Below the pieces are notes generated by a model. It had not been told where the DNA came from. It saw only the letters and a program-made list of their open reading frames with translations, and ran no database searches. From NCBI GenBank assembly GCA_963777955.1, contig CAVZSQ010000013.1, positions 448,001 through 512,000 on the forward strand: a stretch of 64,000 bases of DNA, read 5' to 3'. This stretch comes from Calditrichia bacterium (GTDB taxonomy: Bacteria > Calditrichota > Calditrichia > JAJRVZ01). Positions 28,127 through 60,971 of this stretch are shown piece after piece. The number at the start of each line of letters is the position of its first letter. Position 1 is the stretch's first letter. A program made the translations under genes and the position numbers.

Positions 28127-28215
28127 TTCTGGTTATAATTTGTAATTAGTAATTAGTAATTGATTAAATTATTTTCATGCAACTAAGTGTCAAAGGTTCG
28201 GAAAATTTAACACCA

Positions 28216-29766: not shown

Positions 29767-29801
29767 ATCTATCTCCTGGAATGATAGATCATTTTGTTTA
29801 A

Positions 29802-31816: not shown

Positions 31817-31948
31817 TTATTTTTCTAACTTCATTTCCTCTATGACTTTCATGGTTTCAACACTAACCGTGCAAACCTTTTGCAGCAAATCGATTACCTG
31901 TTCCTTGTAATCAGCAAACCGGTAGTGTAAATCGTCAAAAACTCCCAC
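31817..31948 (-). pseudogene. Orphan C-terminal remnant of a type ISP restriction-modification enzyme
   Basis: Minus-strand translation HYRFADYKEQVIDLLQKVCTVSVETMKVIEEMKLEK*, resembling the terminal helix of LlaBIII-like type ISP proteins; in-frame TGA just upstream at 31955-31957. Confidence 0.6.
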
Positions 31949-32017
31949 CGATTTTCATGAATTTATTAATTAATGCCAGTCGGTTCATTGTTTAATTGAA
32001 AGAATTGTCAGCAAATA

Positions 32018-32935
32018 TTATTTCATATTTGTTTTATATGACTGTTTTACTAAAGACAATATGTATTCTATGTTTTCATCATCGTTTATTTGTATTTCAT
32101 AATCACCATTGCCCCAGTGTCCTACATTGGAGACATCTCTCATTAGTCCTTTCGGATCATCTAATTCGCCTTTTTTTAGGTTTATCCACAACTTTAAAGA
32201 ATTTTTTTGAACATGTATATCAACAATATTTGAACCACTGACAAATGCTATATATAATTTTTTTGGTTTAATTTCAATCTGACCTATGTTTAAAATCATT
32301 AATTTTATCTTTTCATACAGTTCAACCATTTCATCAGAAGCATCAGCAAGGTGTTCTTCTTCTGTATATACCTTAATTTCTTTACTGACTGCTTTTATAT
32401 TTTCATCTTTGATTGTGATTGTTTTTATACTTGCTTGTGCTTTTGAAGACTGAATCTGCTCGTACCCGATTGTTTGATTAGAATACTTCTTTATTATCCA
32501 TAATGAAATCGGTAAATCTTTAAAATTAATAGATTCATTCTGATAAGCAGTAAAGGAAGGTGATATAAATATTACTCTTGATTGTGACCACTCAATGTCA
32601 TCTCGTTTAATTGTGCGATTCTTATTTTCATTATATTCTAAAATAAACTCCGCCTTATTATTGAGCATTAGAGCTAGATATGTATATCCCTGATCTATGA
32701 CACTAAAATTCCTGTCTTTTTTATATTCAATTATTACAAATGATTTTGATTCACGATCAAAGGCCAATGTATCGATTCTAAAATTATTAATAAAACATTC
32801 TGATTTCACAATTTCTAAACCAAATAGTAATTCTAAGTTTTCTTCTGTTAGTTTTTGTATATCTTTTTCATATTTAAAAAATTCTTCTTTAATAAATGTT
32901 AATTTATTATCAGAATTTTGATATAAAGCCATCAA
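32018..32935 (-). CDS. PD-(D/E)XK (NucS/EndoMS-like) nuclease-fold domain plus DUF5655 domain
   Basis: EKDIQ...RIDTLAFD...VIIEYKK...QG..Y; C-terminal KKLYIAF, LDDPKGLMRDVSNVGHWGNGDYE. Confidence 0.75.
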   Translation of the reverse strand: MMALYQNSDNKLTFIKEEFFKYEKDIQKLTEENLELLFGLEIVKSECFINNFRIDTLAFDRESKSFVIIEYKKDRNFSVIDQGYTYLALMLNNKAEFILEYNENKNRTIKRDDIEWSQSRVIFISPSFTAYQNESINFKDLPISLWIIKKYSNQTIGYEQIQSSKAQASIKTITIKDENIKAVSKEIKVYTEEEHLADASDEMVELYEKIKLMILNIGQIEIKPKKLYIAFVSGSNIVDIHVQKNSLKLWINLKKGELDDPKGLMRDVSNVGHWGNGDYEIQINDDENIEYILSLVKQSYKTNMK

Positions 32936-33146
32936 ATCCTCTCTTTATTATTGCTCTAGCAATCAACATGAATGAAAAACCTACGATATATTATGAACTT
33001 TTATTTAATGGAAGAATCAAGGAATCTCGATTTGAATTTGTACTGATCTATTGATAGATATAATATAATCAGTATTTTCAAGGCACATACTGAAAATATT
33101 CCTTTACCAGTCATACGCTATCTTTGATTTGCTTAAACTAATTGAC

Positions 33147-33184
33147 AAAAAAAATCCCAAATTATTTTACAACAATTTGGGATT
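33147..33184 (-). terminator. Intrinsic terminator closing the long minus-strand adhesin/partner-switch operon
   Basis: Minus strand AATCCCAAATTGTTGTAAAATAATTTGGGATTTTTTTT: stem-loop with T-tail about 20 nt after the DUF456 stop. Confidence 0.75.
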
Positions 33185-33205
33185 CCATAGTTGGCCTGTC
33201 TATAA

Positions 33206-33709
33206 TTAATAGATTGTATACCCGATCATAATCAGCATGGTGACCGCAGCGCAGGTCTTGACCGACAATCCCCCGATTTTACCGATGAACGAACCGATTC
33301 CGGAGTTCAGTGCTGCGCGCAAATTATAGGACTTGAAGAATTCCAGCAAGGTGCCCCCTAAAAAGACTCCCAGCACAGACCCGATTATGGCACCGATGAC
33401 CGGGGTGACAAAGGCGCCGCTGATGGCTCCGGCTATTCCCCCGATAATGCTGCCGCTGATGCCCCACTTGGATGCGCCGTATCTCCTGGCTGCTACAATG
33501 ATCAGAAAATATTCTAAAGACTCGGAAATCAATACTATCAGAAAGAGGGTTAATACAAATGTGAAGGTAAAACTATTGAAACTCGTGATCAGACCATAAA
33601 CCAGTGAATCCAGGGCTATCAGTAAATTACCAGGCAGACCGAAAAAATTCGAAAAGAATGAACCCAGTACTGCGGTTAAAAAAACAATTTCAACGATCAG
33701 ATCCAACAT
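33206..33709 (-). CDS. DUF456 family membrane protein
   Basis: GLPGN, ARRYGASKWGISGSIIGGIAG, Gly-rich TM helices. Confidence 0.8.
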   Translation of the reverse strand: MLDLIVEIVFLTAVLGSFFSNFFGLPGNLLIALDSLVYGLITSFNSFTFTFVLTLFLIVLISESLEYFLIIVAARRYGASKWGISGSIIGGIAGAISGAFVTPVIGAIIGSVLGVFLGGTLLEFFKSYNLRAALNSGIGSFIGKIGGLSVKTCAAVTMLIMIGYTIY

Positions 33710-33721
33710 CGGCTGCTACAC

Positions 33722-34447
33722 CTATTTGTTTGAACCAGAGGCAAAGGCATAACGACGGGTTTTACTGTTTAATCCCAGTCTTTGCAATTCACCCCGCACC
33801 ATCAGCCAGCCAACCTTCATAAAACCATAATCTATGGTATTCAGTTGCTTCTTTATTTTATAGGCTCCGTATTCCGGATTTTTTCTGACAATCATCTTTA
33901 TTTTTTCTATTAACGATAAATCAGCAGTGGCCATTTCACCTCTTTCGATAATTGTCTCCGTTACTCCGGTCGCAGCCGCTGTTTTAGAAGCACCTGTTCC
34001 CGTAGCAGCAGTTGCTGCCGTCTCTTTACCGGCAACCACTTCCGGCTTCTTGAAACTGACTTCTTTGGCTACAGGTTTGCCCGCCGATTCCAAAACTTCG
34101 AACTTGTTGATAGCTTCGTCAACTGTGTCGTATACATCCAGAATATGATGGAATTCCAGCAACTCAAATATTTCATATACATCCGGTACCATTCGTACTA
34201 ATTTCAGATCTCCACCATTTTCCCTGATGGATTTAATTTCACTGATAAAGATACCCCAGCCCGCGCTGCTGATATAATCCACATTTCCCAGATCCACCAC
34301 AATAAAGAATCGCCCCTGTTTTAATAAAGAATCTAAAGCTCGCTCCAATTCTGAAGACGTAGTGGTATCAATGTAGCCACCCACTTTAATTATTGAAATC
34401 TGATTTCTGCTCCCGGCAACTTCTGCTGATACCTGAATGCCTTCCAT
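33722..34447 (-). CDS. STAS anti-sigma-factor antagonist (RsbV/SpoIIAA type) with Ala/Thr linker and C-terminal HTH-like extension
   Basis: GYIDTTT, VDLGNVDYISSAGWG (phosphoacceptor Ser motif), GDLKL, VYEIFELL; about 65 aa C-terminal NPEYGAYKIKKQL module. Confidence 0.9.
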   Translation of the reverse strand: MEGIQVSAEVAGSRNQISIIKVGGYIDTTTSSELERALDSLLKQGRFFIVVDLGNVDYISSAGWGIFISEIKSIRENGGDLKLVRMVPDVYEIFELLEFHHILDVYDTVDEAINKFEVLESAGKPVAKEVSFKKPEVVAGKETAATAATGTGASKTAAATGVTETIIERGEMATADLSLIEKIKMIVRKNPEYGAYKIKKQLNTIDYGFMKVGWLMVRGELQRLGLNSKTRRYAFASGSNK

Positions 34448-34477
34448 TCAACTCCTCCTTAATCTGATTGGGACAAT

Positions 34478-37400
34478 CTAACCTTGGTTAGATTTCGATA
34501 GTAAATCGAGTATTGCCTTGTTCTTCAATAAATTTTTATTGGCAATTTTTTTACGTACTGCATCCAGATCAGATTGACCAGCTGAAACATCTTTGCTCGC
34601 CTTTTCTCTGATCTGCAGATTTTTTATCCCGACTTCGTTAATCTGTTCTAGTATTGTATTCAATAATATATTTTCTTTTTTTATGTATATCAACACTTCT
34701 TTAGCATTTTCAATAACAAACTGTTCTTCCAACTCCGCACTGTTCTCTGACAAAAATTCAATTACACTGATGACCTGGGTGAACAGTTGCCTTACATTCA
34801 GCATATCTTTTAAAAGATGGTGGGTGGATATAATTTTCAGGGATAGTACAATTTTTATAAAATCTTCCTTCTTAAAATTTCCGTCCGTCCAGTTTAAAAC
34901 GACATCATCGATTAATTTTAAATCATCCTGTATCGTATCGTAAAAAGTATCCAGTTTTTCCGGAGTGATTAGCTGAACAGGTGCAGCCAGCGTGGGCACT
35001 GTTTCTGCTTTCGGTTCTTCCGGAAGCGCCTGGAAAACATTTATCGGTACTGCCACCGAAGGTATTTTAGGCGGTGGAGTTGTTTCGACTTTGGATTCAA
35101 TACTCGCTTCCTTAACCGGTGCTGCAGGCGCTTTGAGTTTGCGGAGCCGCGGCGGAGTTATTTTAGCCTCTTTCGGCTTGTAAGTTTCTGTCTTGGTTTT
35201 AAAGTCAATCCTTGGTTCAGGAAGTTTTTCCTTGACCGGCGGTTTTTCGCTGACTGGTTGAATTGCATCTGCCGCAGGTATGCCCGCCTCAGCTGTTGCC
35301 GGTTCTTCAATTCTCTTTGAAACTAATTGTTTATCAGCAAACCTTTTTTCTGATTCCAGCGGCGGGGGCGGCATGAATTCAGCCGGTGCTTTGGTCCCGC
35401 GTTTTTCCGAAATAACTTTTTCTGCCGATTCATAATTCAGGATGACCTGGCCATCCAGGGTTAACAACGGTGTTCCGGGCAGTTTGATCCGCTTACGGCC
35501 GCCCCGCTTGATAAACGCTTCACGTTTTTCGGCAGTGGTCAGACGGGCATGTTTGAGTTCTTCGTAAATACGACGGGGTTCCAACAATGTAAAACTATAC
35601 TTTTCGGTATTCAATTCATCACTGATCCGCTTGGGCCCAAATTCAGGATTATTGCGTACTACTTCAAATAACTTGGTTTTATCTTCAATACTGATATGTT
35701 TTTTCTCGATATAATCTGTCTCATATAAAGCTTCCTTCAGTCCTTCCCAGCCAACTTCTTCTTTAATACGCTTGTACTTGCGGTACATATAAGGGGATAC
35801 CAGCATCTGCTCGCAGGCTTCTTTTACCGGAACCTTGACCTCTTCAATCAACCGGAACAGTTCCTTTTGAATGGCATATATGACTTCACCCTGCATTAAC
35901 TTTTCTTTGATCGCTACAAAAGTGATGTCATCGTTCTGAGGATATCCCTGGGTATGGTGTTTGATGTCGTCTTTCACCCGCTGGATGAATTCCGATACAT
36001 CATAGTTGGAAAACCGGCGAATTACATCCAGAAAGCGTTCTTCCCGGTATAATTCACGCTTGGGATTCATGGCTTCGGTAACACCATCGGTGTACAGAAC
36101 CAGCAGATCATCTTCCCGTAAACGTATTGTATCTGCCTGTATTTTCTGATCAAACAGGGTCAGATCCGGTAATTGAATACCTACCGGAAATCCGGATGGA
36201 TTTAAATAATAGGTCTGCTTGGTGCTGCCGCGATATAAGATCATCGGATTGTGGCCGGCACTGGCATAATGAATAATACGGTTACGGCTGTCCAGCACCA
36301 GATAAAACATGGTCACGAACATACCCCGCTTCATGTCATCGGTCACGAAACGGTTGACCTTGCTCAGTACATCGGCCGGATTTTTATTGCCGCGTGCTTC
36401 CAGACGCAGAGCAGTACGGATCATGGTCATGATCAACGATCCCGGTACGCCCTTTCCGGCCACATCGGCTACGCAGATACCGATCGTATCATTATCGACT
36501 TCCACGAAGTCGAACAGGTCTCCGCCCACTTCTTTGGCCGCTTCATAATAGGAGGCCAGTTCATACCCTTTTACCTGCGGGAAGTCGCTGGGCAATAACA
36601 TCTGCTGAATTTCCTGGGCAACCTGTAATTCTTTTTGCAGACGCTGCTGCTCGATCAGGTTAACCTGGGCCTCGCGGAACTTATTGGTCATCAGGTTAAA
36701 GGCCTGGGCAATTTCACCCAATTCGTCGGAAGCATCGATATCAATTTCGTCCTCATCGATGGTACCCTGGCCGACTTCCTTGACCCAATCAGCAAGGGAA
36801 TGGAAGGGGGTAACAATGCGGTCGATCAGAAAATAACTGCCTACATAACTGATTAAAAGAATTATTATAAGGTAAATGATCAGATTGGTTTTACTCTGAC
36901 TGGCCCGTGATTGGATATAATCGTCCGGGATCCAGATATGTGCCCAGCCGATTAATTCCCCCTGGCCGCGCAAACCGGTATGGATTTCGGCGGCAAAATC
37001 ATATAAGGTCAGAGTATCCTCAGCGGTATATTTATATACGCTCAGGTAGCGCAGAGTATCTCCGGTATCCACCACAGACTTCTTTTCGGGATAGTTATAA
37101 ATCCCCTGTGATTTTAGCGGTGTACTGCCGCTGACGATCTCCCGGGCCGAGTCGACAATGAATGTCTCATAAATCAGATCAGGATTATTTTTTTTGAGTG
37201 AATGAGCAAGGGAAAACAGATCCAGATACTGGTCTTTTTGTAAATATTCGGAACTATTATCGGCCAGCGAGAGGGACTGCACTTTGATGGTCTGGATTGC
37301 CTCATTCAGATTAGTTTCATCAACCTGAAAATACAATAATGAAAAGATGACTAAAGCTAAAAAGGTAATTATCACCGAAGCTGTAATGGTATGCCGTGTG

Positions 37401-37873
37401 CGCAGGGTCAGATCTTCCCAAAGGGCTTGCGGTTTGGTCTGCGGTATGACTTCACGCTGTTTGGTCAGACGTAATTCGTTGCCGCGGCTGGTAATATTGT
37501 ACTGGACATCATCCATCAACTTGCGCATCATGAAAATGCCCAGTCCACCCTTTTTACCGATCTGGATATATTTTTCCAGGTCCGGCGTGGAAGCCTGCCG
37601 CGGATCGTAACTGATACCCTGGTCGACGACAACGATGGTCAAACTCTGCCGGCGGACAATCGCCTTGATGGTGATCTCGCCGCCCTTGATATCACGGTAG
37701 CCATGGCGGATAATGTTCGTACAGGCTTCTTCGATAACCAGTTTGAAGGAGTTGATCAGGCGGTCTTCATATCTGTACTTTTTGCCGATGTGATCGATAA
37801 AATCCCTTACCTGGCCCAGATAACTCATCTGTGCCGGTATGGCGATCAATTCCTTTCTGACATTTCGAAACAT
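34478..37873 (-). CDS. Membrane-bound RsbW-type Ser kinase / periplasmic sensor / HAMP / SpoIIE (PP2C) phosphatase fusion with HTH-like, Pro-rich and helical C-terminal domains
   Basis: EEACTNIIRHGY, DQGISYDP, GGLGIFMMRKLMDDV (HATPase_c_2); two TMs; DELGEIAQAFN (HAMP); VGGDLFD, ADVAGKG, ASAGHNP, YTDGVTEA, DDIT (SpoIIE). Confidence 0.9.
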   Translation of the reverse strand: MFRNVRKELIAIPAQMSYLGQVRDFIDHIGKKYRYEDRLINSFKLVIEEACTNIIRHGYRDIKGGEITIKAIVRRQSLTIVVVDQGISYDPRQASTPDLEKYIQIGKKGGLGIFMMRKLMDDVQYNITSRGNELRLTKQREVIPQTKPQALWEDLTLRTRHTITASVIITFLALVIFSLLYFQVDETNLNEAIQTIKVQSLSLADNSSEYLQKDQYLDLFSLAHSLKKNNPDLIYETFIVDSAREIVSGSTPLKSQGIYNYPEKKSVVDTGDTLRYLSVYKYTAEDTLTLYDFAAEIHTGLRGQGELIGWAHIWIPDDYIQSRASQSKTNLIIYLIIILLISYVGSYFLIDRIVTPFHSLADWVKEVGQGTIDEDEIDIDASDELGEIAQAFNLMTNKFREAQVNLIEQQRLQKELQVAQEIQQMLLPSDFPQVKGYELASYYEAAKEVGGDLFDFVEVDNDTIGICVADVAGKGVPGSLIMTMIRTALRLEARGNKNPADVLSKVNRFVTDDMKRGMFVTMFYLVLDSRNRIIHYASAGHNPMILYRGSTKQTYYLNPSGFPVGIQLPDLTLFDQKIQADTIRLREDDLLVLYTDGVTEAMNPKRELYREERFLDVIRRFSNYDVSEFIQRVKDDIKHHTQGYPQNDDITFVAIKEKLMQGEVIYAIQKELFRLIEEVKVPVKEACEQMLVSPYMYRKYKRIKEEVGWEGLKEALYETDYIEKKHISIEDKTKLFEVVRNNPEFGPKRISDELNTEKYSFTLLEPRRIYEELKHARLTTAEKREAFIKRGGRKRIKLPGTPLLTLDGQVILNYESAEKVISEKRGTKAPAEFMPPPPLESEKRFADKQLVSKRIEEPATAEAGIPAADAIQPVSEKPPVKEKLPEPRIDFKTKTETYKPKEAKITPPRLRKLKAPAAPVKEASIESKVETTPPPKIPSVAVPINVFQALPEEPKAETVPTLAAPVQLITPEKLDTFYDTIQDDLKLIDDVVLNWTDGNFKKEDFIKIVLSLKIISTHHLLKDMLNVRQLFTQVISVIEFLSENSAELEEQFVIENAKEVLIYIKKENILLNTILEQINEVGIKNLQIREKASKDVSAGQSDLDAVRKKIANKNLLKNKAILDLLSKSNQG

Positions 37874-37882
37874 TTAATTGTC

Positions 37883-39783
37883 CTATTTATTTTGGCTGCG
37901 TTTCAGACGATCTTCCGCACCGCTGATCGCTTCCAGTACTTTTTTATTATAGGGGTGCTGTTTTAATATTTCCTGCCAGATCTCGATGGCTTCATTATAT
38001 CGTCCTAATAAAAACTTGTCCACCCCTTCCAGATAGCGGCGTTCGGCTTCCGGTTCCATTTTTTCCGTTTCGGCCAGTGCTTCAATCTTGGATTTGGTAT
38101 AATACTGGCGGATAAACTGATTGCCCGGATCCTGCGACAATACGTCCTCAAATATTTTCAAGGCGTCTTCGTATTGCCCGATATCAAATAACATCAAACC
38201 TTTCTGGATATTTTCCTGTAATTTAACTCTTTCAACTAATGTGTCAACCTCTTTTTTCACCTGCGAGTCATCGCTGCTGAGCAGGCGGGCTTCAGACAGC
38301 AGGCGCAGTGCTTCCGAATAATTTTCCTTCTCGAATTCCTGACGGGCCCGCAAGACCAGGGCATTGATATCCTCCCTCATCCGGCGCTGGGTGGTATTGA
38401 TCGCATCCCTGATCGGCTTATTCTCAGGATCACGTTCCAGCGCCTGATTAAAAGCAATTAAAGCCTCGGTGTACTGTTTTTTATCTAAGTATAATCGGCC
38501 TTTCTGGTACTGATCTTCAATAAATTTTTTATCAACTTCGGCGCGATTTTTATCGATGGCCGCTAAGATGGCCTGGTTCTGCCGATCGTCAATTTCCCGG
38601 CTCAATAAGACATTGGCCGAATCAAGCATGATCCTGGCTTGTTGATGGAAAGGCTCCTGGTTGATCACCTCGCGGTATTCAACCACGGCATCAAGATACT
38701 TCTTTTCCCTGAAATATGCATCTGCTTTCTGTAAATGGTCGGCAATGGATTTTTGTTTATCCGCTTCGCGAATTTCAGTAATGATGCGCTCCTCCTCCAA
38801 CCGTCTTCAATTCCTGTACGATGGCAAACATTTCATCGCGATTCATGCCAAAATTGGCCGTGAGTGAAATCCGGTGAATGGAAGACAACATGCCTTCGCT
38901 ACTGGGATTACCAAAGGCATAATCGATCTGGAACATACTGTATTGCACCCCGGCACCAAAAGCGATACCATTATTGCTATAACCTAACCGGACCCTGCCC
39001 ATATCCATAAAACTGTATTCAGTTCCAAAACCTACAGCCATGTCGGTATCCACGCTTTTGTCCAGATCCAGCAGTACATTCAGCGAATTACCTTCACCAA
39101 AAAAGGGGATCTTACGGGCATATACCAAAACGGAATACCAGCGGCAGAACATCAGCTGAACCACCTTCGCCCACCTGTGGCGGAAATAGATTTTCCAGAT
39201 TGAGACCTAACGACCAGTCACGCATATACGGGGAGAGACTGAAAGTCGGCCGGTACATTAATCCTAAATCCATGCCCACACCAACGCCTACTGTCTTGCC
39301 ATAACCGGTCAGACCGGGCCAGGCCGAGCGGTTTACTTTGACGGATAAACCGCCTGCCAGATCCCAGGGAAGTTTCAGACCATATGAAAAATACACCTGA
39401 TATCTTTCCCGCGAAAAGGTAGCCAGATCCTCAAAATTTCGATTGGTTTGGGGAATATCCCCAATTCCTATCCGTGCAATACCTATGGCGAAGGTACCCA
39501 GATCCAGGGTTGGATAGGCATATCCTAGAAAGTCATAAGAGGCACCTTCGTACAGGGAAGCATGAAATAAGGTCACGCTCTGCTGGTAGATGTAATCCAG
39601 ACCGGCCGGATTCCAATAAACAGCAGTGGGATCATCGGCCAGTGCTGTAAAGGCATTGCCCATGCCCATGGCCCGGGCCCCAAAGCCAAAATCAAACAAA
39701 CTGCGCGTGCCGGCCTGCCCATTTCCATCCTGGGCCATCAATATGCCGGGCAAGAATATCAGAAGTAATAAAAATTTCTTCAT
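37883..39783 (-). CDS. PorV/UPF0164-like outer-membrane barrel fused to C-terminal TPR domains; split into ORFs 39112-39822, 38775-39164 and 37883-38800 by two apparent +1 indels
   Basis: Signal peptide MKKFLLL, GARAMGMGNAFTALADDPTAVYWNPAGL, GMDLGLMY, IDYAF...IHRISL; then TPR repeats (YTEALIAFNQALERDPEN). Confidence 0.8.
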
Positions 39784-39835
39784 AGGCATACCCTGTATAT
39801 ACTTATAACTTTTAATTCTCATCTCGACAACTCAC

Positions 39836-42800
39836 TTATTTTAGATAAGCAATTTTTGTGATATAGGTCTGTGTCGCTCCACCGCCGACAGGTTTGATTT
39901 GCAACTGACACAGATATACATCATTAAGCACCGTTTTCCCGCGGTCATTTTTACCATCCCACTTGATATCATCATATGATCCACGAGATCTTCTATCCTT
40001 TTTCGTCCAGACCAATCCTCCGGTCAGAGTAAAGATACGTATTTCAATAGTCGGAATCCTGCTCCAGATATACCAGGATTATGGTTTCGTCTTCATTCCG
40101 GCCAAATGGATTAGGATAATTCCGGAATGCTTCTTTGGAATTATGGGGTACACGACTAATCACCCCCGATCTGCCACCCATCGCTTTGAGGCACTCTTCC
40201 ATCTGGACCCGCCACATCCAAGGACCATATGCGGGATTTACATCATAGGCATAAATATCGAGCAGTACACATCTGAAACTGCGATTGGTAGCGTCTAGAT
40301 TTAAATTTAGCCAGTACTATCACTGTATCCTCTAGTACCTGCAGCCATGACTGAATCACTCCGGTGAATGGGAAGGAATAATGGATTCCCACGTACTCAT
40401 TAGTAATGTCAAGCGAACCAAATTCTATTGCGTCCTTGGCCAGAGCCTGTAATTCATGGTAACGATCCAGATTAACCAGCGTCAAGGATTCAAACATATT
40501 GACCAAAGTTGAAGTCATCAACGTATCGTCACTGCTGGCACCAATAAAAGACAAGTTTTAAATTCTTAAGGGTCACATCATTCTGCAGCCCCGCTAAATC
40601 CAGCATTCGAAATTTCAAAAGCCAATAAGGGTGCATTATCGTCACCGCGTCTGGAACATTTGATTTTCGATCAGGGAATCGGTCAGATTGGTAACTATTA
40701 TACTTCTTTTTCTCAGTGCTGATTGAGAATGACCTGCTGCTGTTACTTGCATCAACATATGCAGGATCGCCACTGTTACGGTCATCCGGTACACCCGGAT
40801 CAGGGTAAAAGTTATAGTTTTGGCAAATACCGTGGTGTCTGGCGCCAGAACACTCCAGATTACCAGGGTATCATCAATGGCAAAGGTGCGAATACTAGTC
40901 TGGTGGTGTTAAAGTAAATATATCCGGCCGTGAGATCTTTACCTGGCATAGACCGGTAACATCAGCCATACCAGTAATACCGTTAAGATCCCTTTCTACC
41001 TTGGTACGGAATTCAATTGTCTGGCCCACTGAAACCAGGCCGTTCTTTGCGGTTTCCGGTGAACTAATTTCTGCCGTCAACATAACCCGGGCGTACGGCT
41101 GCACCAGAATAGAATCATTAACCGTCTGACTTTCTATCTCAGTTCCACTGTTATTATCTGTTACCCAGGCTGTTAGACTAAATCTTTGCATAATTGCACT
41201 GAGCAGAGTTTTTTCACTCCTGATATTCCAGGTGATTACCTTTGTATCCGGAATATATTGCACCGGATTGCTAACAATGAGTCCCGTACCAGGAGGCAAT
41301 GATATTACAGCACGCATATTTGTTACATTGGCGCTGAAATCGAAATAGCGGGTGTAGGTAAAAGTCTGCCCTGCCGATACAGTATCCGCAGGATTGCCGC
41401 CGAGAATTGATATTTCAGCTATGGTTTCCGTGGTAACCGGGATTAATACCTGCCGTACCGCAGCATTGGCCGGCCGCAAGGTATTTTCATCCAGCGGGGT
41501 TGTATCGATCCGGATAGCAATCGATCCGGCTCCCGTTGTCTCAGCCTGTTGTTTCAACGCAACCGAAAGTTCGTTCAGCAATCTCTGCTGTTCCGCTGCC
41601 GCTACGCTGTTCTGCTGGCCATAAGCGCTTCTGGAACTGGTGGCTCCAAGTTTGGACAGTATTTCACTGATCGGCGAGGCAGCATTTTTATTTATGGTAG
41701 TGGTATTGGCATCGATCCACCAGCTGACCGTATCACCGACTGTATAGGTTTTCTGAACAGCATTATCCGTACAACTGCTGCAAAGGCTGAACAGAGAATC
41801 ATCAACTTGTACTGAGATCAAACCCTGGCTGCCGGGAACAATATTGGCCGTACCGGCTCGACTGATATTAGCCCGGATCCTGAACTGCTGACCTTCGGAA
41901 ACACTGCCATCTCTTGCACCAACCGGTTCTACAATAGCCGCTGTAAATACAATACTGGCCTTGGTTATAGTTTGAATGGCCAGCGTGGCATTCGTACTGA
42001 CCGGTGTCAGATTTGCATCGGCATTGAAATTCGCTGAGGCCAACAGGTTCAGCACTGACCAGTCGCTGGCATCTTTCGGAGCCCGGATATACCAGGACAA
42101 ATCATAAACACTCTGCTGAACGTTCAGGAGCTGGCGAATTAAACTGCTATCCTGCGTGGAATAACCTTCTCCGACCGGCAATTGCAGTTTAACCTGGCGG
42201 TTATGGTCAAGCAAGGGATGAAAAGTCACCCGGGCATCTATCCGGATGGAATCCTGATCGGTCGAGACAGTAACACTGTCATTCGTAACGGGACTGCTGA
42301 ACTGTATGGAATTTATTACAATGGAGGCCTGGATCGCATTCACCAGTAACTGGCTGCCGAATGAGTTGATCACGGCATCCTGACCGGTGTTCTGGTCAAC
42401 AGGATAAATCAACTGTGATATCATCAGGGTATCATTAATACCAGCCGTCTGTGCCAGCGATTGTACCAGCCAGCTGACCGAGCGATTGCTAAATGTATAA
42501 GAAGTGTCGGCGGCGGATAAGATCTGGTAATTGGCGGGAACATTCAGGCGTAATAATCCCGGACTAAATGTTGCCGTGCCGCTACTGGTGACATTTAATC
42601 GTACATAGAACCGCTGTCCAACCGCCACGGTCGAATTTGTATCCCCGCTCAGCGTGGTGACTGTACTGCTCAAAGTCAGCACCGCCGGCATATCGGCATG
42701 AACCTGCGCGGTATTTTGAAGTCGGTTGCCCTATACTGATCGGTTGGCCGGTGGTGGCATCAATCGCTGAAACAATTCTGGCCAGGTAAGTATAATCACC

Positions 42801-51800: not shown

Positions 51801-54800
51801 AAAGATCATAACCGACCGCATACAATGTTAAAGTCTGATCCGTGGTCAGTGTCGTGTCATCAAACGCCTGACCTGCCGTGCGTATTGTCTGTATTTTTAA
51901 TTCTGCCAATGTCCCGCTAGTAATTGTAATAGTACCTGTTGAATCAGGAGTTACACCGCCAATAGAACTGGTGGCGATGATCCGCCCGGCATCGGGTGCG
52001 ATACTCGGAGAAAAGACATAAGAACTTCCGGAACCTGAAACTGAATTGGCTAATCCGATCTCCGACCAATTGACTGTAACATTGCCCGTGTAATTTGCAT
52101 ACTGGTCGTATCCCGCTGCATAGAATACAATTGAACTTGTGACAGTAATGGTTGAATCAGCAAATTCTACTCCCTGATTATTATTTGCTGTTCGTATGCG
52201 CACATAATCAAGACTATTGGACGTAATCGTGATTAGCCCGCTCACCCCCTGCTTGGCGTGATCTGACTGGCTCCAGCCGGTCAGCGTAAAACTCTCCGCG
52301 GTATTGTCATATACCTGAAACGTCGCTACTCCCGCCGTTAAACTCTGACTCGCCGGCGTCTCTATAACATTGGCACTGCTGCCGATTAATTCCACCACCG
52401 TGCTGTTATCGCTGCTTACTAAATTGTTATTGCCGTCATAGGCACGGACCACTACGTTTATATTCACCCCGGCCAGCGCACTGTATACCGCCGGCGTCAC
52501 CGTGTAGTACGATATGCCTCCCGCTGTTCCCGTCACCGTGAACACTATACTATCCGCAGGACTGCTCACTATCACCGCCGCCACCAGGTTCGCACCCGCT
52601 ACCGCTCCGGTCGTTAACGTCGCCTCCGCTATGCCATTGGCACCGCTGCTTACCGTGCGCACTCCCAAACCACCTAAATTTCCGCCGCCGCTTATTACCC
52701 GGTATCTGATACTCTCATTATTCACTACATTACCATACGCATCCGTCACCAATGAACGCAGTAACTGATCCGTTCCTGCCACCACGCTCACTCCGCTACC
52801 GCTCGATACCGACAGGTTCGTCGCCGCATTCGAACTGACCGTCACTACCCCGCTAACCCCCTGCTTGGCGTGATCTGACTGGCTCCAGCCGGTCAGCGTA
52901 AAACTCTCCGCGGTATTGTCATATACCTGAAACGTCGCTACTCCCGCCGTTAAACTCTGACTCGCCGGCGTCTCTATAACATTGGCACTGCTGCCGATTA
53001 ATTCCACCACCGTGCTGTTATCGCTGCTTACTAAATTGTTATTGCCGTCATAGGCACGGACCACTACGTTTATATTCACCCCGGCCAGAGCACTGTATAC
53101 CGCCGGCGTCACCGTGTAGTACGATATGCCTCCCGCTGTTCCCGTCACCGTGAACACTATACTATCCGCAGGACTGCTCACTATCACCGCCGCCACCAGG
53201 TTCGCACCCGCTACCGCTCCGGTCGTTAACGTCGCCTCCGCTATGCCATTGGCACCGCTGCTCACCGTGCGCACTCCCAAACCACCTAAATTTCCGCCGC
53301 CGCTTATTACCCGGTATCTGATACTCTCATTATTCACTACATTACCATACGCATCCGTCACCAATGAACGCAGTAACTGATCCGTTCCTGCCACCACGCT
53401 CACTCCGCTACCGCTCGATACCGACAGGTTCGTCGCCGCATTCGAACTGACCGTCACTACCCCGCTAACCCCCTGCTTGGCGTGATCTGACTGGCTCCAG
53501 CCGGTCAGCGTAAAACTCTCCGCGGTATTGTCATATACCTGAAACGTCGCTACTCCCGCCGTTAAACTCTGACTCGCCGGCGTCTCTATAACATTGGCAC
53601 TGCTGCCGATTAATTCCACCACCGTGCTGTTATCGCTGCTTACTAAATTGTTATTGCCGTCATAGGCACGGACCACTACGTTTATATTCACCCCGGCCAG
53701 CGCACTGTATACCGCCGGCGTCACCGTGTAGTACGATATGCCTCCCGCTGTTCCCGTCACCGTGAACACTATACTATCCGCAGGACTGCTCACTATCACC
53801 GCCGCCACCAGGTTCGCACCCGCTACCGCTCCGGTCGTTAACGTCGCCTCCGCTATGCCATTGGCACCGCTGCTCACCGTGCGCACTCCCAAACCACCTA
53901 AATTTCCGCCGCCGCTTATTACCCGGTATCTGATACTCTCATTATTCACTACATTACCATACGCATCCGTCACCAATGAACGCAGTAACTGATCCGTTCC
54001 CGCCACCACGCTCACTCCGCTACCGCTCGATACCGACAGGTTCGTCGCCGCATTCGAACTGACCGTCACTACCCCGCTAACCCCCTGCTTGGCGTGATCT
54101 GACTGGCTCCAGCCGGTCAGCGTAAAACTCTCCGCTGTATTGTCATATACCTGAAACGTCGCTACTCCCGCCGTTAAACTCTGACTCGCCGGCGTCTCTA
54201 TAACATTCGCACTGCTGCCGATTAATTCCACCACCGTGCTGTTATCGCTGCTCACTAAATTGTTATTGCCGTCATAGGCACGTACCACTACGTTTATATT
54301 CACCCCGGCCAGCGCACTGTATACCGCCGGCGTCACCGTGTAGTACGATATGCCTCCCGCTGTTCCCGTCACCGTGAACACTATACTATCCGCAGGACTG
54401 CTCACTATCACCGCCGCCACCAGGTTCGCACCCGCTACCGCTCCGGTCGTTAACGTCGCCTCCGCTATGCCATTGGCACCGCTGCTCACCGTGCGCACTC
54501 CCAAACCACCTAAATTTCCGCCGCCGCTTATTACCCGGTATCTGATACTCTCATTATTCACTACATTACCATACGCATCCGTCACCAATGAACGCAGTAA
54601 CTGATCCGTTCCTGCCACCACGCTCACTCCGCTACCGCTCGATACCGACAGGTTCGTCGCCGCATTCGAACTGACCGTCACTACCCCGCTAACCCCCTGC
54701 TTGGCGTGATCTGACTGGCTCCAGCCGGTCAGCGTAAAACTCTCCGCGGTATTGTCATATACCTGAAACGTCGCTACTCCCGCCGTTAAACTCTGACTCG

Positions 54801-57340
54801 CCGGCGTCTCTATAACATTCGCACTGCTGCCGATTAATTCCACCACCGTGCTGTTATCGCTGCTCACTAAATTGTTATTGCCGTCATAGGCACGTACCAC
54901 TACGTTTATATTCACCCCGGCCAGCGCACTGTATACCGCCGGCGTCACCGTGTAGTACGATATGCCTCCCGCTGTTCCCGTCACCGTGAACACTATACTA
55001 TCCGCAGGACTGCTCACTATCACCGCCGCCACCAGGTTCGCACCCGCTACCGCTCCGGTCGTTAACGTCGCCTCCGCTATGCCATTGGCACCGCTGCTCA
55101 CCGTGCGCACTCCCAAACCACCTAAATTTCCGCCGCCGCTTATTACCCGGTATCTGATACTCTCATTATTCACTACATTACCATACGCATCCGTCACCAA
55201 TGAACGCAGTAACTGATCCGTTCCGGCCACCACGCTCACTCCGCTACCGCTCGATACCGACAGGTTCGTCGCCGCATTCGAACTGACCGTCACTACCCCG
55301 CTAACCCCCTGCTTGGCGTGATCTGACTGGCTCCAGCCGGTCAGCGTAAAACTCTCCGCGGTATTGTCATATACCTGAAACGTCGCTACTCCCGCCGTTA
55401 AACTCTGACTCGCCGGCGTCTCTATAACATTGGCACTGCTGCCGATTAATTCCACCACCGTGCTGTTATCGCTGCTCACTAAATTGTTATTGCCGTCATA
55501 GGCACGTACCACTACGTTTATATTCACCCCGGCCAGCGCACTGTATACCGCCGGCGTCACCGTGTAGTACGATATGCCTCCCGGTATCCCCGTTATCGTA
55601 AAACGAAATGAGTCAGACGGGCTGCTGACCAGGATAGCGGTAACCTGGTTCGTACCGGCCGTGGAGCCGGTAGTGAATGTCGCTTCTGCCAAACCATTGA
55701 CATTGGTGATCTTAAAAACGTTGGATGCTCCCTCCAGGTTTCCATTCCCGCTGCGTACAATGAAATTGACAGTTTGGCTGCTTTTAGCGTTACCGAAAGT
55801 ATCCGTAACGGCGACCCGTAAAAGTTGATTTGTACCTGCAATGACAGAACCATTACCGCTCTGGTACAAAAGGGTATCAGCGCCGCCGGCAGCGACTGTT
55901 ACCAGCGCGCTGGTTCCGCTGACCGAGGTATTATATTTACTGCGGGCTGTAAAAGTAAGATTTTCCGCTGCAGAATCTGCAAAAGTAAAACTGGCTACTC
56001 CTGCGCTAAGATTATCTTCCGTCGCACTGAGACGTACGCGGGATCCGGTAGTTAAAAATTCAACGGTTGTGGTATCATCCCAGCTGACCAGGTTATCTCC
56101 GGCATCATAGGCACTGACCGTGACAGACACATTTGTTCCCGCTGTTGTACTCAGCACCGCCGGGACAACAGTATAATAAGCGATCAACTCCGGTAAAACG
56201 GTTACGCTGTATCCGCCATTAGTAGTGTTGACCGCAGAACTGGTACCGATAGCAGCGTCGATAGTGGATGTGAAATTACCTGAGCCGGTCTGCGCTGAAC
56301 CATTTTCCAGAAAAGTAACTACCACGGAATCTTTGATAGCAAAATATGATGTCTTAATTACCAGACTATCACCGGTGGGATAGTACCACCACGAGGCAAA
56401 TTGCGGCGCGGTCGGCCGGCTTTGACTGCGTTGAATAAAATAACTGGAACCGTCAATATTAACGGATACTACAGAAATGGATTCATCCGTAAAAGGGTTG
56501 TTAATCACCACATGATCGGCTTTACCCATATTCGAAGTCGAGGAAGAAATACTGGTAATTCTGTATACATATTCATTGGAAGATGATGCCCGCAGTACCG
56601 TATCCGGGTTTATACTCGCTGTCGCGGAATTTACATCGTCGCCATACCAGATGATAGACATGGAATCCAGAACAGCCGGTGTGTCATTATTGGCGAATTG
56701 CAGACCTATCGTACCATCACTGTTTTCTGTTCCAATCGTGGCTGCCCCGAGTGAATCGTCCATTGCGGCCAGATAGTTGAAAACAAATTCATTGGTGGAT
56801 TCAGATAAAATTATTTGAAAATAATATGAACCGGCCTGAGTGATGTCAACACAGAAGTCGTTCCATTGAACGATAAACTTGCGGTAAGGAGCAGTACCGA
56901 TCGTTTGATAATAAACGTCAGAAAACGCAGTCTCCGCTGCGGAATCTTATTGCACTCCAGCCAGCTGCCATGATATTATTAGGTACATTAACATTTGGAA
57001 CGCCGTCATCATTCTGGTCCTCATAACTGGTGGCGATAGAAGTGAAATCGATGAATCCACCTGTACTGATCCACACCTGAGAATAATCTGTGCCATAATA
57101 ATTAAAGTTAAAACCGATCGATATGGGGCCCCTGAAGTCATCCGAGACTACAAAATCTGCCTGTGATCCCGCCAGCACATCTTGCCAGGTGAAAGGTATT
57201 GTAGCACCACTGGCCAGCGAGGTTTTCCAGCGGTAACCATAACTATCCGGGCCTCCGCTGGGCGATGTAGCCAGTTGGGCAATTGCAGCAGTACTGAGTG
57301 AAAGTACTATCAGAATTGATAATATCTTCGCAAGTTTCAT
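39836..57340 (-). CDS. Giant (~5,800 aa) secreted Ig-repeat surface protein/adhesin with nidogen-like N-terminal domain, Big_1-like repeats and FlgD-Ig/T9SS-like C-terminal domain; fragmented into ORFs 56918-57340, 50821-56763, 42582-50789, 40895-42691, 40243-40554 and smaller pieces
   Basis: Signal peptide; GPISIGFNFNYYG...VYYQTIGTAPYRKFIVQW; VTDAYGN/VADSLGNPV Big_1-like motifs; C-terminal NYPNPF...WDGKNDRGKTVLNDVY...TKIAYLK*; each junction examined is repaired by deleting one base. Confidence 0.8.
52237..55582 (-). repeat. About 5.5 near-identical tandem copies of a 612-bp (204-aa, two Ig-like domains) unit within the giant protein gene
   Basis: Identical antisense ORFs at 52514, 53126, 53738, 54350 and 54962 (612-bp period); degenerate extra copy at about 55583-56190. 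Confidence 0.97.
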
Positions 57341-57352
57341 AGTTATATCTCA

Positions 57353-57877
57353 CTACTTGTTAAGCGTTATTATATTTCCCCTGCCGGTCACGGTTGCTGC
57401 AAAAACGCCATTGGGCAGCAGGGTTTCGACCATAACCGAATTTTGCTGGTTTGCTTCGGAAATTTGTTTTTCATTTAAATTCAACTGTATTTCCAGCGTC
57501 AGAGCATAAGGATCTGTATAGACAAAAGGATATACCCGCAGGGTGCCGGTGGAGTCCGTATAATTCCAGGCCAGCACATTATCGCGGGCAGCATTTTCCA
57601 TCGACTGGATCAGCCAGAGTGCCTCTCCGGATTTTTCCGCGTAGAGCAGGGTAAGTTTCCCCGGAATACCTTCCAACCGTATATCGATATTTTCTACAGT
57701 GGTTACGCCGGTGGTATTAATACGCAGGCGTAATGATTGCGGTTCTGGATTGGACTGGAGATCTGTAGTCAGAACTTCATATTCAACCAGAGCTGTGGAC
57801 GGAATCTGATTTTGTGCAGGTAGGACATTGTATAAAAACAAAAAAATTATCCCTACGAATAATACTCTGGACGACAT
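57353..57877 (-). CDS. Small secreted beta-rich hypothetical protein, first gene of the adhesin operon
   Basis: Sec-type signal peptide, GGAG RBS upstream, 12 bp from the giant gene start. Confidence 0.7.
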   Translation of the reverse strand: MSSRVLFVGIIFLFLYNVLPAQNQIPSTALVEYEVLTTDLQSNPEPQSLRLRINTTGVTTVENIDIRLEGIPGKLTLLYAEKSGEALWLIQSMENAARDNVLAWNYTDSTGTLRVYPFVYTDPYALTLEIQLNLNEKQISEANQQNSVMVETLLPNGVFAATVTGRGNIITLNK

Positions 57878-57992
57878 TATGTTGTACTCCTTATTTTTAT
57901 AAAAAATACAATACTTGATAAAGCAATTTTACATATTCGTGTCATCGTAGTGGTGATAAAAAGCACATTTCACAGTCAGGATTATTTACTGA

Positions 57993-58019
57993 GATTCGGC
58001 ATTGTTTTCATTAAGTTTA
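57993..58019 (-). promoter_or_regulatory. Candidate sigma28 (FliA/SigD)-type promoter of the adhesin operon
   Basis: Minus strand TAAA-N15-GCCGAATC versus consensus TAAA-N15-GCCGATAA. Confidence 0.45.
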
Positions 58020-58091
58020 ACGAATATTTCACTTAAAAAACAGAAGCGAAAGAAAAAACCACCTTTTTACAGGTTTTTAGGAGGGTGATGT

Positions 58092-59240
58092 TTATTTTAA
58101 TATGGCACGGAGCAGGATCAGGAATTCTTTCCCGTCATTTTCAACCAGTTTTTTATTTTTTATAGCTTTATCAAAATCAGGATTGATTTCCAGTGCCCGG
58201 TTAAATTCATTCAGCGCCTGCAGAAACAGATTCCGGCATTGAATAAGATGGACTACCCCCAGATTATTCCACAGATCGGCATATTCGGCATTCTGCTCGA
58301 TGGCGGATTTCAAGCGGTACTCGTAACGCTTAATAGTTTCCATATCGAGTCCCTTACCGCCGTACATAAATTTTAAATAAAAATTGGTAGAAATAAGATT
58401 GCTGACATCTTTCAGGAAAATTCTTTTGCGGTTTTCTTCCAGTAACTGAATAATCTGTTCGACTTTATTCTGATTGACCAGTTTCAGGGCTTTATCATAA
58501 ACCACATCGAATATTTTTATATTTTTATCCTTTAACTGATCAAGATGCTCCATCGCCCGTTGAATACGGATGGAAGGGGGGGGCAGAAAATGGTTATCAT
58601 TGGAGTTTAAAGTACTGCGCAGATACAGCGAGGCAATATTATAATGTGCCTCCAGATAATTTTTATTCTGTTTGATCGCTTTCTTGAACTCGCGCAGAGC
58701 CGCCTCATACTGATTATCCATCATCAGGGCAAACCCGTAATTATTCAACATATCCGTGAAATGTTCCCCTTTCAGCATACCCTGGCGCAGGATCTCTACA
58801 GCCTTGGTATGATTTCCTGACTGAGTATAAGCCTGGCCGAGGTTATTATATCCCTCCAGGTTATGCGGATTGATTTCAATAGCCAGTTGAAAATGCTTGA
58901 TGGCATCTTCGGCCAGATTATTCTGCAGGAATAAAATCCCGATTTTATTGTGTGAACTGCAATGCCTGATCTGCATAACTTTTTCTGAAATTTTGAACAA
59001 GAGATCAACTTCATTGATCATCTCATTATGCATCGATTCGACAATAACTTTCAGGCGGTCTTCCACCGAATCACGGCGATCACCTTTACGTCTTTCAAAA
59101 TCTACCGTGGTAGCCGTAATTACACGTCCGTCTTCATACACTTCACAACGGATTTTCCCCTTGCTGGAGTTGGTGGAAGTTTGAAAGTGGAATTTTCGTC
59201 CGAACACTTCCAGATTATCATTAAATCCTATCTCTGACAT
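58092..59240 (-). CDS. Cytoplasmic TPR-repeat protein with uncharacterised N-terminal domain
   Basis: TPR motifs (AIKHFQLAIEINPHNLEGYNNLG, YADLWNNLG, ALNEFNRALEINPDF); no signal peptide. Confidence 0.85.
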   Translation of the reverse strand: MSEIGFNDNLEVFGRKFHFQTSTNSSKGKIRCEVYEDGRVITATTVDFERRKGDRRDSVEDRLKVIVESMHNEMINEVDLLFKISEKVMQIRHCSSHNKIGILFLQNNLAEDAIKHFQLAIEINPHNLEGYNNLGQAYTQSGNHTKAVEILRQGMLKGEHFTDMLNNYGFALMMDNQYEAALREFKKAIKQNKNYLEAHYNIASLYLRSTLNSNDNHFLPPPSIRIQRAMEHLDQLKDKNIKIFDVVYDKALKLVNQNKVEQIIQLLEENRKRIFLKDVSNLISTNFYLKFMYGGKGLDMETIKRYEYRLKSAIEQNAEYADLWNNLGVVHLIQCRNLFLQALNEFNRALEINPDFDKAIKNKKLVENDGKEFLILLRAILK

Positions 59241-59303
59241 GCTCTGTTATCCTAAAATTCGAATTTGAACCTTTTATGGTATACGGATACTATTTATGAT
59301 TCC

Positions 59304-60971
59304 CTACTGGGTTATCACTCGGGTAATTTCTTTCTGCAAGTCAACATCCCGACGGGCCGAATTCAGATACAAGCGCATTTGATTGCGGCCCATATTCTTG
59401 GCTTCATACAGAGCCTGATCGGCGCGCTGAATCAATTCATCCGGATTACGGGCGTCATCCGGAAAAGTCGCACCGCCCAGGCTGACGGTCAGTTTACCAT
59501 CAGGTTGTACTCGTTCTTTATAAAACACATGACTTTCAATTTTCTGTCGCAGACGTTCGCCCAGAATCTCCATGCTGCTTTTCGAGATCCCCGGCAGGAT
59601 AATGCAGAATTCTTCCCCGCCGTACCGGGAGACAATATCTTCATCACGTACGGCTGCTTTTAAAACTTTACCCAGGCTGCGCAGGGCCTCATCTCCGGCC
59701 TGGTGTCCCAGGGTATCATTATAATTTTTAAAATGATCAATATCAATAATCAGCAGGGACACCTTGGATTTATTACGGCGACCCCGGTTTAATTCTTCCT
59801 TTAAGCGGATCGAGAAATAACGGTAATTATGCAAATTAGTCATCGCATCGGTCAGGGATAAGTTTTTAACTTCTTCATAATGCAGGGCATTCTCGATCGA
59901 GATGGAAATAATGTTTATCAGTACATGAAATAATTCGTAATCACTCTGGGAAAATGAATGCCCGTATAATTTCTCACCGATTCCGATAATCCCCTGCAGA
60001 CGTCCCTGGATAAGGATAGGAGCAATCAGGTATAAACCAATTCTTTTAAGTTTTTTGGTATAGGCGTTCAGCACATATTCTTTTTCTAAATCTTCGACAA
60101 ACAGAGGGGTTCCCCTTTTTAGCAGATATTTGGCTATGGGTGTTTCAATCTTAAATTTAAGAATTTCCACATCCCGTTCTTTGAACCCTTTCTGAAAATT
60201 ATGACTGAAAGTATGCGTGCCGGCTTCATACATCAAGGCCAGCGCATTCTGGATACCCAGTTGGCCGATTATGGTCAGCAAGGCAGAGTTAATCAACTGT
60301 TTAAAATTTAAGATGGAATAGATCTCATTGCTGGCTTCGACCAGGTTGTGCAGATCATATACTTTTCGTTTTACTGCTTTTTCCGCAATCTGCAGCGAGT
60401 TTGCGCTCTCCAGCAGGGATTTATGCAGAATCGCGATTTGTTCCTTTAAACCTGCTCTGGCCACTGATTCCTGATGGGACTTGAGCAAACGGGAAATAAT
60501 GAGATAAAAAAGGTTATAATAATTCGCACGGTACTTTTTATTTGCAATTCTTAAAATATAATAAAATTCGTCCTGTAACTGAAAATAAAGAAATTCACTC
60601 TGGAACTCATTCTCCGGATTGGATTTTTCGGCTCCGTCATAAATACCCAGCTGATTCGTGAAAATATCATTAAAATGCCGGATAAAATAACCTGACTTTT
60701 TCAGATGCAGCGGTTTTTTCGCCAGCAGGTCCAGCCAATGCTCCGGAGTATCTTTGCGGACACCGTATAGATCAAGGCTGAGCGATGTGAATTTTGAAAT
60801 CTTTTCGAAGGCCCGGATCAGATGAATATTCAGATCAATGTTAGAGATCACATTTTGATCCGGCAGAGCCAGATAAGTATCGCTGAGAATAAAATCGTTA
60901 AATAGATGCGCCTGCTGATTCAGCAAGGGCAGGAAATCAAAACGTAGAATTTTTTTAAAAATACTTTTCAT
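59304..60971 (-). CDS. GAF-domain diguanylate cyclase
   Basis: TDAMTNLHN, DIDHFKNYNDTLGHQAGD, intact A-site GGEEF with RxxD I-site (RDED), upstream GAF (LIAPILIQGRLQGII). Confidence 0.92.
   Translation of the reverse strand: MKSIFKKILRFDFLPLLNQQAHLFNDFILSDTYLALPDQNVISNIDLNIHLIRAFEKISKFTSLSLDLYGVRKDTPEHWLDLLAKKPLHLKKSGYFIRHFNDIFTNQLGIYDGAEKSNPENEFQSEFLYFQLQDEFYYILRIANKKYRANYYNLFYLIISRLLKSHQESVARAGLKEQIAILHKSLLESANSLQIAEKAVKRKVYDLHNLVEASNEIYSILNFKQLINSALLTIIGQLGIQNALALMYEAGTHTFSHNFQKGFKERDVEILKFKIETPIAKYLLKRGTPLFVEDLEKEYVLNAYTKKLKRIGLYLIAPILIQGRLQGIIGIGEKLYGHSFSQSDYELFHVLINIISISIENALHYEEVKNLSLTDAMTNLHNYRYFSIRLKEELNRGRRNKSKVSLLIIDIDHFKNYNDTLGHQAGDEALRSLGKVLKAAVRDEDIVSRYGGEEFCIILPGISKSSMEILGERLRQKIESHVFYKERVQPDGKLTVSLGGATFPDDARNPDELIQRADQALYEAKNMGRNQMRLYLNSARRDVDLQKEITRVITQ

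Follow-up and report, generated by a model that had tools for sequence, protein, structure and literature searches.

Gene content of the locus

We analyzed a stretch of 64,000 nucleotides (the window, taken at its full length) from a Calditrichia bacterium (assembly GCA_963777955.1, contig CAVZSQ010000013.1, positions 448,001 to 512,000), whose nearest relatives are Calditrichota with 92% identity. Our subject is a run of eight genes on its minus strand (Table 1). The core of a conserved cassette within this run consists of a RomY-like TPR protein, a small secreted protein, a giant protein with immunoglobulin (Ig)-like domains and a type IX secretion system (T9SS)-type tail, an outer-membrane barrel of the PorV family with a TPR arm (PorV-TPR), a membrane protein that joins an RsbW-type kinase to Cache, HAMP, and PP2C domains (abbreviated KP), and a STAS protein with a helix-turn-helix (HTH) module (STAS-HTH1). 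A first-pass annotation, made from the window alone, had read these genes as a control system for surface adhesion. The co-orientation of the eight genes that it described holds provided that frameshifts are allowed for, and the tight spacing that it reported from position 57877 to 33206 was found as 12, 13, 9, 30, and 12 bp between the 174-aa gene and the DUF456 gene; a terminator-like hairpin indeed closes the run. The cyclase and TPR genes are separated by 63 bp, and the TPR and 174-aa genes by 214 bp. Pfam and profile scans also returned the expected domains, namely GAF-GGDEF, TPR, Big_1 with a CHU_C/PorU-like tail, the PorV family, HATPase_c_2, HAMP, SpoIIE, and STAS with HTH_21.

The frame changes in the giant and PorV-TPR genes (Table 1) had been overlooked. 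As both genes are single open reading frames (ORFs) in most relatives, and as the extra letters at 38805, 39121, 40791, 42720-3, and 50845 are absent from contigs of independent runs (five of the breaks), the breaks are most likely assembly errors. Stop-codon recoding was rejected as an explanation, since the breaks are frame changes.

Table 1. Features of the gene run, in the direction of the minus strand.
Feature	Position	Strand	Remarks
GAF-GGDEF diguanylate cyclase	59304..60971	-	RxxD I-site and GGEEF intact; lineage-limited, outside the giant-protein operon
RomY-like N-terminal domain (residues 4-78) plus TPR protein	58092..59240	-	NF053858
CRP-type palindromic box	57952..57967	-	20 bp upstream of -10-like hexamer 57931-57926
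174-aa protein, hydrophobic N-terminus, no family match	57353..57877	-	First gene of operon
Giant Ig-like/Big_1 surface protein, T9SS-type C-terminal domain	39836..57340	-	~5,835 codons, ~8 frame breaks
PorV-family outer-membrane barrel plus ~300-aa TPR arm	37883..39822	-	2 frame breaks; 630-660-aa single ORF in relatives
KP	34478..37873	-	RsbW-type kinase 12-138, transmembrane helix, Cache/PAS-like, transmembrane helix, HAMP 348-398, SpoIIE/PP2C 461-656, HTH 671-785
IS481-type transposase N-terminal DNA-binding-like module in KP, without catalytic core	35519..35863	-	NF033577
STAS-HTH1: acidic STAS domain, S61, low-conservation linker, basic HTH	33722..34447	-	Pfam STAS and HTH_21
DUF456 membrane protein	33206..33709	-	Pfam; optional last gene, 35/52 evaluable loci
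Terminator-like hairpin	33151..33186	-	16 pairs, T-tail

Conservation of the cassette

Of 86 Calditrichota genomes, 81 encode KP (52 of the 53 of high quality). It was also detected in 143 of the 151 sampled genomes of the KSB1 phylum, a tally that includes two unpublished genomes (G175 and G231); in both phyla it is mostly single-copy. The linkage of KP to the surface-protein genes, which the first-pass annotation had put forward as the point on which its proposal could fail, was borne out. Among 71 family loci, with those having too little flank omitted from each count, the gene immediately upstream of KP is PorV-TPR in 57 of 61, a giant gene or gene with a C-terminal domain of this type is located upstream in 50 of 52, and STAS-HTH follows downstream in 53 of 59, with two of the misses (L009 and L068) showing STAS in another scan. 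The cassette order also holds in Eisenbacteria-like contigs, named relatives of KP come from Eisenbacteria, Spirochaetota, and Krumholzibacteriota, and a cluster of STAS look-alikes is commonest in Zixibacteria. The cultured Caldithrix abyssi carries the whole set. A metagenome scan returned mostly generic PP2C proteins, with 5 of 80 loci being full-length family members, and five distant matches (L078-L082) have none of the cassette neighbors. The cassette is thus genuine, ancient, and widely distributed, and it probably represents a variant form of partner switching that is built from unusual components.

Several rearranged copies were also seen. KP paralogues of about 1,900-2,000 aa (L072, L073, L075, and L076) are TPR-tailed and have lost the first HTH and the cassette. 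Other KP variants are fused to three STAS domains (L114, P0060, and P0061, one of them named from Krumholzibacteriota), and in L114 the variant is followed downstream by two STAS genes and a RomY-like TPR gene.

KP and the transposase-type HTH modules

By its domains and conserved catalytic motifs, KP is predicted to be a bifunctional membrane enzyme. The RsbW-type kinase aligns with RsbW and has intact N-box and G motifs, and the metal-binding aspartate motifs of the PP2C domain (GGD, DV.GKG, TDG, and DD) are conserved in a 58-row alignment. Conservation is highest in the motifs of the kinase, PP2C, and STAS domains (mean consensus 0.80-0.82). The claim that a periplasmic sensor plus HAMP takes the place of a receiver was confirmed by hydrophobic stretches near residues 161 and 331, which flank a periplasmic part with a confident predicted fold (pLDDT 87). 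This part is predicted to form one Cache/PAS-like domain, which is close to that of WalK (E 2e-5 to 5e-4), and it matches sCache_3_2 in relatives.

The extra HTH-like modules of KP and the STAS protein are real as well and are mutually homologous (STAS tail with second KP HTH, probability 98.7%). The KP module (residues 671-785) matches only profile positions 4-114 of 284 of NF033577 (E 7.6e-7), and in 42 orthologues the families HTH_23 (37), HTH_32 (35), Tnp_1 (33), HTH_28 (28), and HTH_29 (28) were recognized. It is not part of an IS481 element, as there is no catalytic integrase core and the locus is single and conserved; within the genome of the window, the module occurs only on KP and the two STAS proteins. 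A sequence search of the module against solved structures gave nothing below E 0.037. Beyond the HTH follow a conserved PGTP motif (799-808) and a variable tail, of which residues 945-1131 returned unnamed look-alikes only and a 16% Hpt lead.

The same transposase-type HTH, repeated, forms the N-terminus of large family 2 glycosyltransferases (GT2) that belong, where named, to Patescibacteria (P0083, P0103, P0105, P0114, P0118, P0124, P0131, P0141, and P0143), possibly a second domestication, on a putative surface-polysaccharide enzyme.

Two STAS-HTH paralogues

In STAS-HTH1, the serine S61 of the YISSAG motif aligns with the motif serine of RsbV and SpoIIAA. The STAS HTH has a net charge of +5 to +13 in 47 of 47 rows, and the STAS domain one of -6 to -11.

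A second STAS-HTH protein, a further substrate candidate that the first-pass annotation had missed, is encoded in a polysaccharide export locus on contig C26 of the same genome, between a sugar transferase gene and wza and upstream of wzc-like and GT2 genes (STAS-HTH2). Among the 30 best-scoring STAS-HTH2 loci of each phylum, wza follows directly in 28 in Calditrichota and in all 30 in KSB1 (58/60), and the HTH is retained in 60 of 60. In an unrooted tree of 56 rows, a 100/96 branch places the STAS-HTH2 proteins from the two phyla together on the same side, which is consistent with a duplication before the two phyla split. In 13 of the 30 Calditrichota loci (L266-L289), a conserved GGCG-containing motif is located 26-47 bp upstream of STAS-HTH2 and is in many cases preceded by a short hairpin; no exact match was listed for the genome of the window. 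The motif resembles an ops/JUMPstart antitermination element.

Promoters of the two operons

The palindrome before the small gene (Table 1) matches the CRP consensus, and its commonest distance to a -10-like hexamer, 21 bp (15/30), is the class II CRP position. With up to two mismatches, 29 of 32 Calditrichota regions have the box ahead of the small gene (5.4 in shuffled sequences), and with up to one mismatch 13 of 32 do (0.3). The regions counted here and below (32 Calditrichota, 18-20 KSB1) were chosen from long contigs. Before the first polysaccharide gene, it was found in 17 of 23 Calditrichota loci (2.1 in shuffled sequences), with 7 of 30 loci left out because their upstream DNA was too short or the gene upstream was another one. 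The frequency is at chance in a control region (3/32, shuffle 3.5) and in KSB1 (5/18, shuffle 3.3). When a matrix was trained on the sites of 29 other genomes, the site in the window ranked first and that of the polysaccharide operon second among the intergenic sites of the genome. In KSB1, a sigma-54-type motif precedes STAS-HTH2 in 22 of 30 loci (shuffle 0.1) with a pattern that was written after seeing the sequences, and when a matrix was built from these sites, it recovered the spacers before the giant operon in 15 of 18 regions (shuffle 3.6, antisense 0). Within each phylum, the two operons thus have the same type of promoter, the CRP-type box in Calditrichota and the sigma-54 motif in KSB1, and these promoters point to ordinary regulators rather than to STAS-HTH. 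Generic promoter scans stayed at chance level.

We set aside the palindrome as a binding site of STAS-HTH itself because KSB1 keeps STAS-HTH while having the box only at chance; the Crp orthologue in 75 of 86 genomes and the fit to the CRP consensus and class II spacing also disfavor it.

The box remains adjacent to the small gene even where an HD-GYP gene intervenes after the TPR gene, and the operon therefore probably starts at the small gene and would exclude the cyclase and TPR genes.

The cyclase and the RomY-like TPR gene

The view of the cyclase as a core part was not supported. An intact gene is present in 17 of 32 Calditrichota regions, a degenerate one in 2 (Caldithrix), and none in 13; it is absent in 18 of 18 KSB1 regions, and the gene is located upstream of the element that probably serves as promoter of the giant-protein operon. 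The HD-GYP gene is inserted in 14 of 32 Calditrichota regions. With this patchy distribution, c-di-GMP enzymes are a recurring accessory in some families and not core. Some families have a sigma-54 activator gene as the immediate upstream neighbor of the cyclase (L098:4284-5639, Pfam-confirmed, and L084:12025-13338), and in KSB1, pilM/pilO-like genes are found a few genes upstream of the cassette.

The N-terminal domain of the TPR protein, which had likewise been overlooked, matches the RomY model NF053858 with E 1e-7 and 32 bits, below the cut-off of 50. The gene, which is probably a separate transcription unit, precedes the small gene and the giant gene in 31 of the 32 regions from Calditrichota and in 18 of the 20 from KSB1. 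A 382-aa RomY-like TPR paralogue follows a receiver-domain gene on contig C26 of the same genome (L004:9361-10509), and such a paralogue is present in most Calditrichota genomes.

Surface-protein genes and flanking regions

The position of the small gene is filled by a gene of 150-240 aa in most relatives. The giant protein has its T9SS-type C-terminal domain at 39839-40078, with matches to CHU_C, the PorU tail, and TIGR04183 that are all below the cut-offs. It contains five near-identical repeats of 204 aa, which differ by 2-5 bases in 606, and a partial sixth from 55581; this 612-bp repeat was found by a script, as Tandem Repeats Finder missed it with its period limit of 500. PorV-TPR scored 116-133 bits against NF033709 (cut-off 90) in 3 of 3 intact relatives, and the split copy in the window was scanned in pieces only. 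When the PorV-TPR arm and the periplasmic domain of KP were modeled as a complex, the score was 0.00; this gave no verdict and was used neither way. The genome of the window encodes SprA, and it has about 29 matches of PorV type and 67 tails of FlgD_ig type. GldM was not found, in a search that likewise gave no match in any control genome. A motor-less T9SS-like system is possible by these matches.

Contig C24 of the same genome (L001:5305-17444) carries a partial second cassette adjoining a polysaccharide cluster, with a shorter giant gene, an intact PorV-TPR gene (643 aa), and a 162-aa kinase-only ORF. The KSB1 locus L076 likewise has a kinase-only copy, after the long KP paralogue.

In relatives, the run continues straight into genes for DUF4159, DUF4175, and a patatin-POTRA-Omp85 protein, which directly adjoin the cassette in most Calditrichota and follow about 5 kb further on in the window. 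Positions 28100-33100 of the window hold about 5 kb with DUF5655, MarR-like, and DoxX genes between DUF456 and this block, and the GC content is 34% at 30-34 kb.

A proposed membrane-sensed partner switch and its alternatives

On balance, we lean toward the view that the cassette encodes a SypE/SypA-like, membrane-sensed partner switch governing the cell-surface matrix through two STAS-HTH outputs, one on the adhesin and one on polysaccharide. KP would sit in the inner membrane, its kinase before and its phosphatase after the periplasmic Cache sensor and HAMP, and would set the phosphorylation of the conserved serine on both STAS-HTH proteins. Its sensor may read the PorV-TPR arm or a small molecule. 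STAS-HTH1 would belong to the giant surface protein, a putative adhesin, and its dedicated PorV-type anchor, with which it is encoded, and STAS-HTH2, directly before wza/wzc, to polysaccharide export. The STAS-HTH proteins, and not a sigma factor, would be the outputs, the acidic STAS domain gating the basic, transposase-derived HTH, which may bind nucleic acid or a partner. Since ordinary regulators (Crp-type in Calditrichota, sigma-54 in KSB1) appear to begin transcription of both operons, the switch would be a second layer, and its outputs may tune matrix production as SypA does.

Several points weigh against such a switch. Its functional steps are drawn wholly from genomic context. The periplasmic domain of KP is weakly conserved (mean consensus 0.38), the first HTH of KP has a median net charge of 0, and fold searches with the HTH ranked domains of TnsB, Mu, Pax, and Tc3 first or close to first, with weak scores only (Foldseek E at least 0.06; Z 6.8 at a root-mean-square deviation of 13). 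Both promoter motifs were first spotted by eye in part of the sequences counted, and kin are not independent. The class of long TPR-tailed KP paralogues, 4 of 71 loci, occurs without the cassette, one contig (L116) has PorV-TPR and KP with no giant or STAS gene, and in G082 the operon is split. The STAS-HTH2 query gave no match in several genomes of families f7 and f8, and with about 10 STAS, 4 RsbW-like, and about 14 PP2C proteins in the genome of the window, STAS-HTH2 could be served by another kinase.

A more specific version, a checkpoint across several phyla related to Fibrobacterota, Chlorobiota, and Bacteroidota (FCB), is tentative and on the whole doubtful. Here, the giant protein would dock on its own PorV barrel, whose TPR arm would reach the Cache domain of KP, and KP would switch two sigma-independent STAS regulators that bind DNA via a domesticated IS481 domain, so that adhesin display would be coupled to polysaccharide export with KP tethering DNA at the membrane.

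Rather than controlling genes, the HTH modules could hold DNA or bind partners at the membrane. Together with MglA/MglB and the RomY-like TPR protein, they could in this way position the giant protein and polysaccharide export at a cell pole or the site of division. KP is membrane-bound and yet has a full bipartite HTH module, the same module occurs on the GT2 enzymes of Patescibacteria, and mglA/mglB are present in the genome. According to published work, the domain at the N-terminus of RomY stimulates the GTPase-activating activity of MglB (PMC9481161), and SypA acts below transcription (PMC10120452). The RomY-like gene is tightly linked and reappears downstream of KP in the rearranged contig L114; its RomY match is below the cut-off, however, and it lies outside the promoter of the operon and has a paralogue elsewhere in most genomes. 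We regard such a spatial scaffold as unlikely. A canonical Rsb/SpoIIA switch, in which the KP kinase holds a sigma factor encoded elsewhere, STAS-HTH frees it, and the HTH modules are auxiliary, would account for the good alignment of kinase and STAS with RsbW and RsbV. The first-pass annotation had stressed that the window encodes no sigma factor, which says little, as the genome yields 15 sigma70-r2 proteins (of which one comprises regions 2, 3, and 4) and 17 strong sigma-54 activator matches. Still, the mapped neighborhoods, with a family scan of a minority of the flanking ORFs, showed no sigma gene, both STAS paralogues retain the HTH (in every STAS-HTH2 locus counted), and the linked operons have CRP-type or sigma-54 promoters and no alternative sigma-70 motif; we consider this switch distinctly unlikely. 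Finally, KP/STAS and the surface-protein genes might be neighbors by old core-genome synteny without a functional link, as suggested by the long conserved blocks with surA-like peptidyl-prolyl isomerase genes upstream and the DUF4159, DUF4175, and patatin-Omp85 genes downstream, and by the split operon of G082. Yet flanking genes vary between phyla while the core order is constant, spacers measure 9-30 bp, PorV-TPR and KP remain adjacent in distant contigs, and the paralogue is independently tied to polysaccharide export, all of which makes mere synteny highly unlikely.

Comparison with known systems

The statement of the first-pass annotation that no described system has this architecture agrees with our literature search, which found none (supplements and subscription papers were outside its scope). 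The main text of the C. abyssi genome paper (PMC5317091) contains no mention of anti-sigma, adhes-, secretion, Crp, or c-di-GMP. The membrane-sensed switch that we favor would suggest an undescribed control of the sticky cell coat in two little-studied phyla, and it points to a common adhesin-plus-polysaccharide regulon with T9SS-like surface anchoring in two common sediment phyla.

The Bacillus modules RsbU/RsbV/RsbW and SpoIIE/SpoIIAA/SpoIIAB share the catalytic motifs and the STAS serine, and differ in that no linked sigma factor was seen here, kinase and phosphatase are fused in the membrane, and the STAS protein has an output-like domain. The HTH corresponds to the bipartite HTH_28/HTH_32-type module in the N-terminal domain of IS481 transposases; here, in contrast, it is a fixed single-copy fusion without catalytic core, conserved across phyla. 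If our reading is true, bacteria would here have domesticated the DNA-binding domain of a transposase for signaling. The surface-protein genes recall the type B C-terminal domain proteins with PorP/SprF and PorE in Bacteroidota, where a large protein is likewise encoded beside its own barrel and a TPR-bearing periplasmic part (PMC9143113). Unlike these, the barrel here scores as PorV and only weakly as PorP, barrel and TPR form one fused protein that lacks a peptidoglycan-binding domain, and a gene for a signaling enzyme follows.

SiaABCD of Pseudomonas aeruginosa, which controls aggregation, has a membrane PP2C with HAMP and two transmembrane helices, a kinase, a STAS protein, and a neighboring cyclase (PMC7647112). 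In KP, kinase and phosphatase are fused; the phosphorylation site would be a serine instead of T68, HTH modules are present, and the cyclase is inconstant and outside the operon. Residues 331-655 of KP match the SiaA model (E 7e-18, 64.5 bits vs a cut-off of 700), and the cyclase in the window reaches 152 bits vs a cut-off of 290 with the SiaD model. KP thus resembles a SiaB-SiaA fusion by its predicted domains, and the system belongs neither to SiaABCD nor to SypE/SypA. SypE of Vibrio fischeri has the order kinase, sensor, phosphatase, with SypA as the downstream output for a polysaccharide locus (PMC10120452; PMC8256260). KP too has an N-terminal serine kinase, a central input domain, and a C-terminal PP2C, and a STAS partner as output with its gene in a polysaccharide locus is matched by the putative output STAS-HTH2. 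The input of SypE is a receiver, whereas that of KP is a periplasmic Cache domain with two transmembrane helices and HAMP; SypA is a STAS-only protein of 105 aa, whereas both partners here bear a transposase-type HTH, and there are two STAS paralogues, one of them in the adhesin/PorV operon. For STAS switches that work without a sigma factor, such as SypA, the output is described as an open question (PMC10120452). The STAS proteins described here bear a candidate output domain, so that this question becomes testable, and the cultured C. abyssi has the set.

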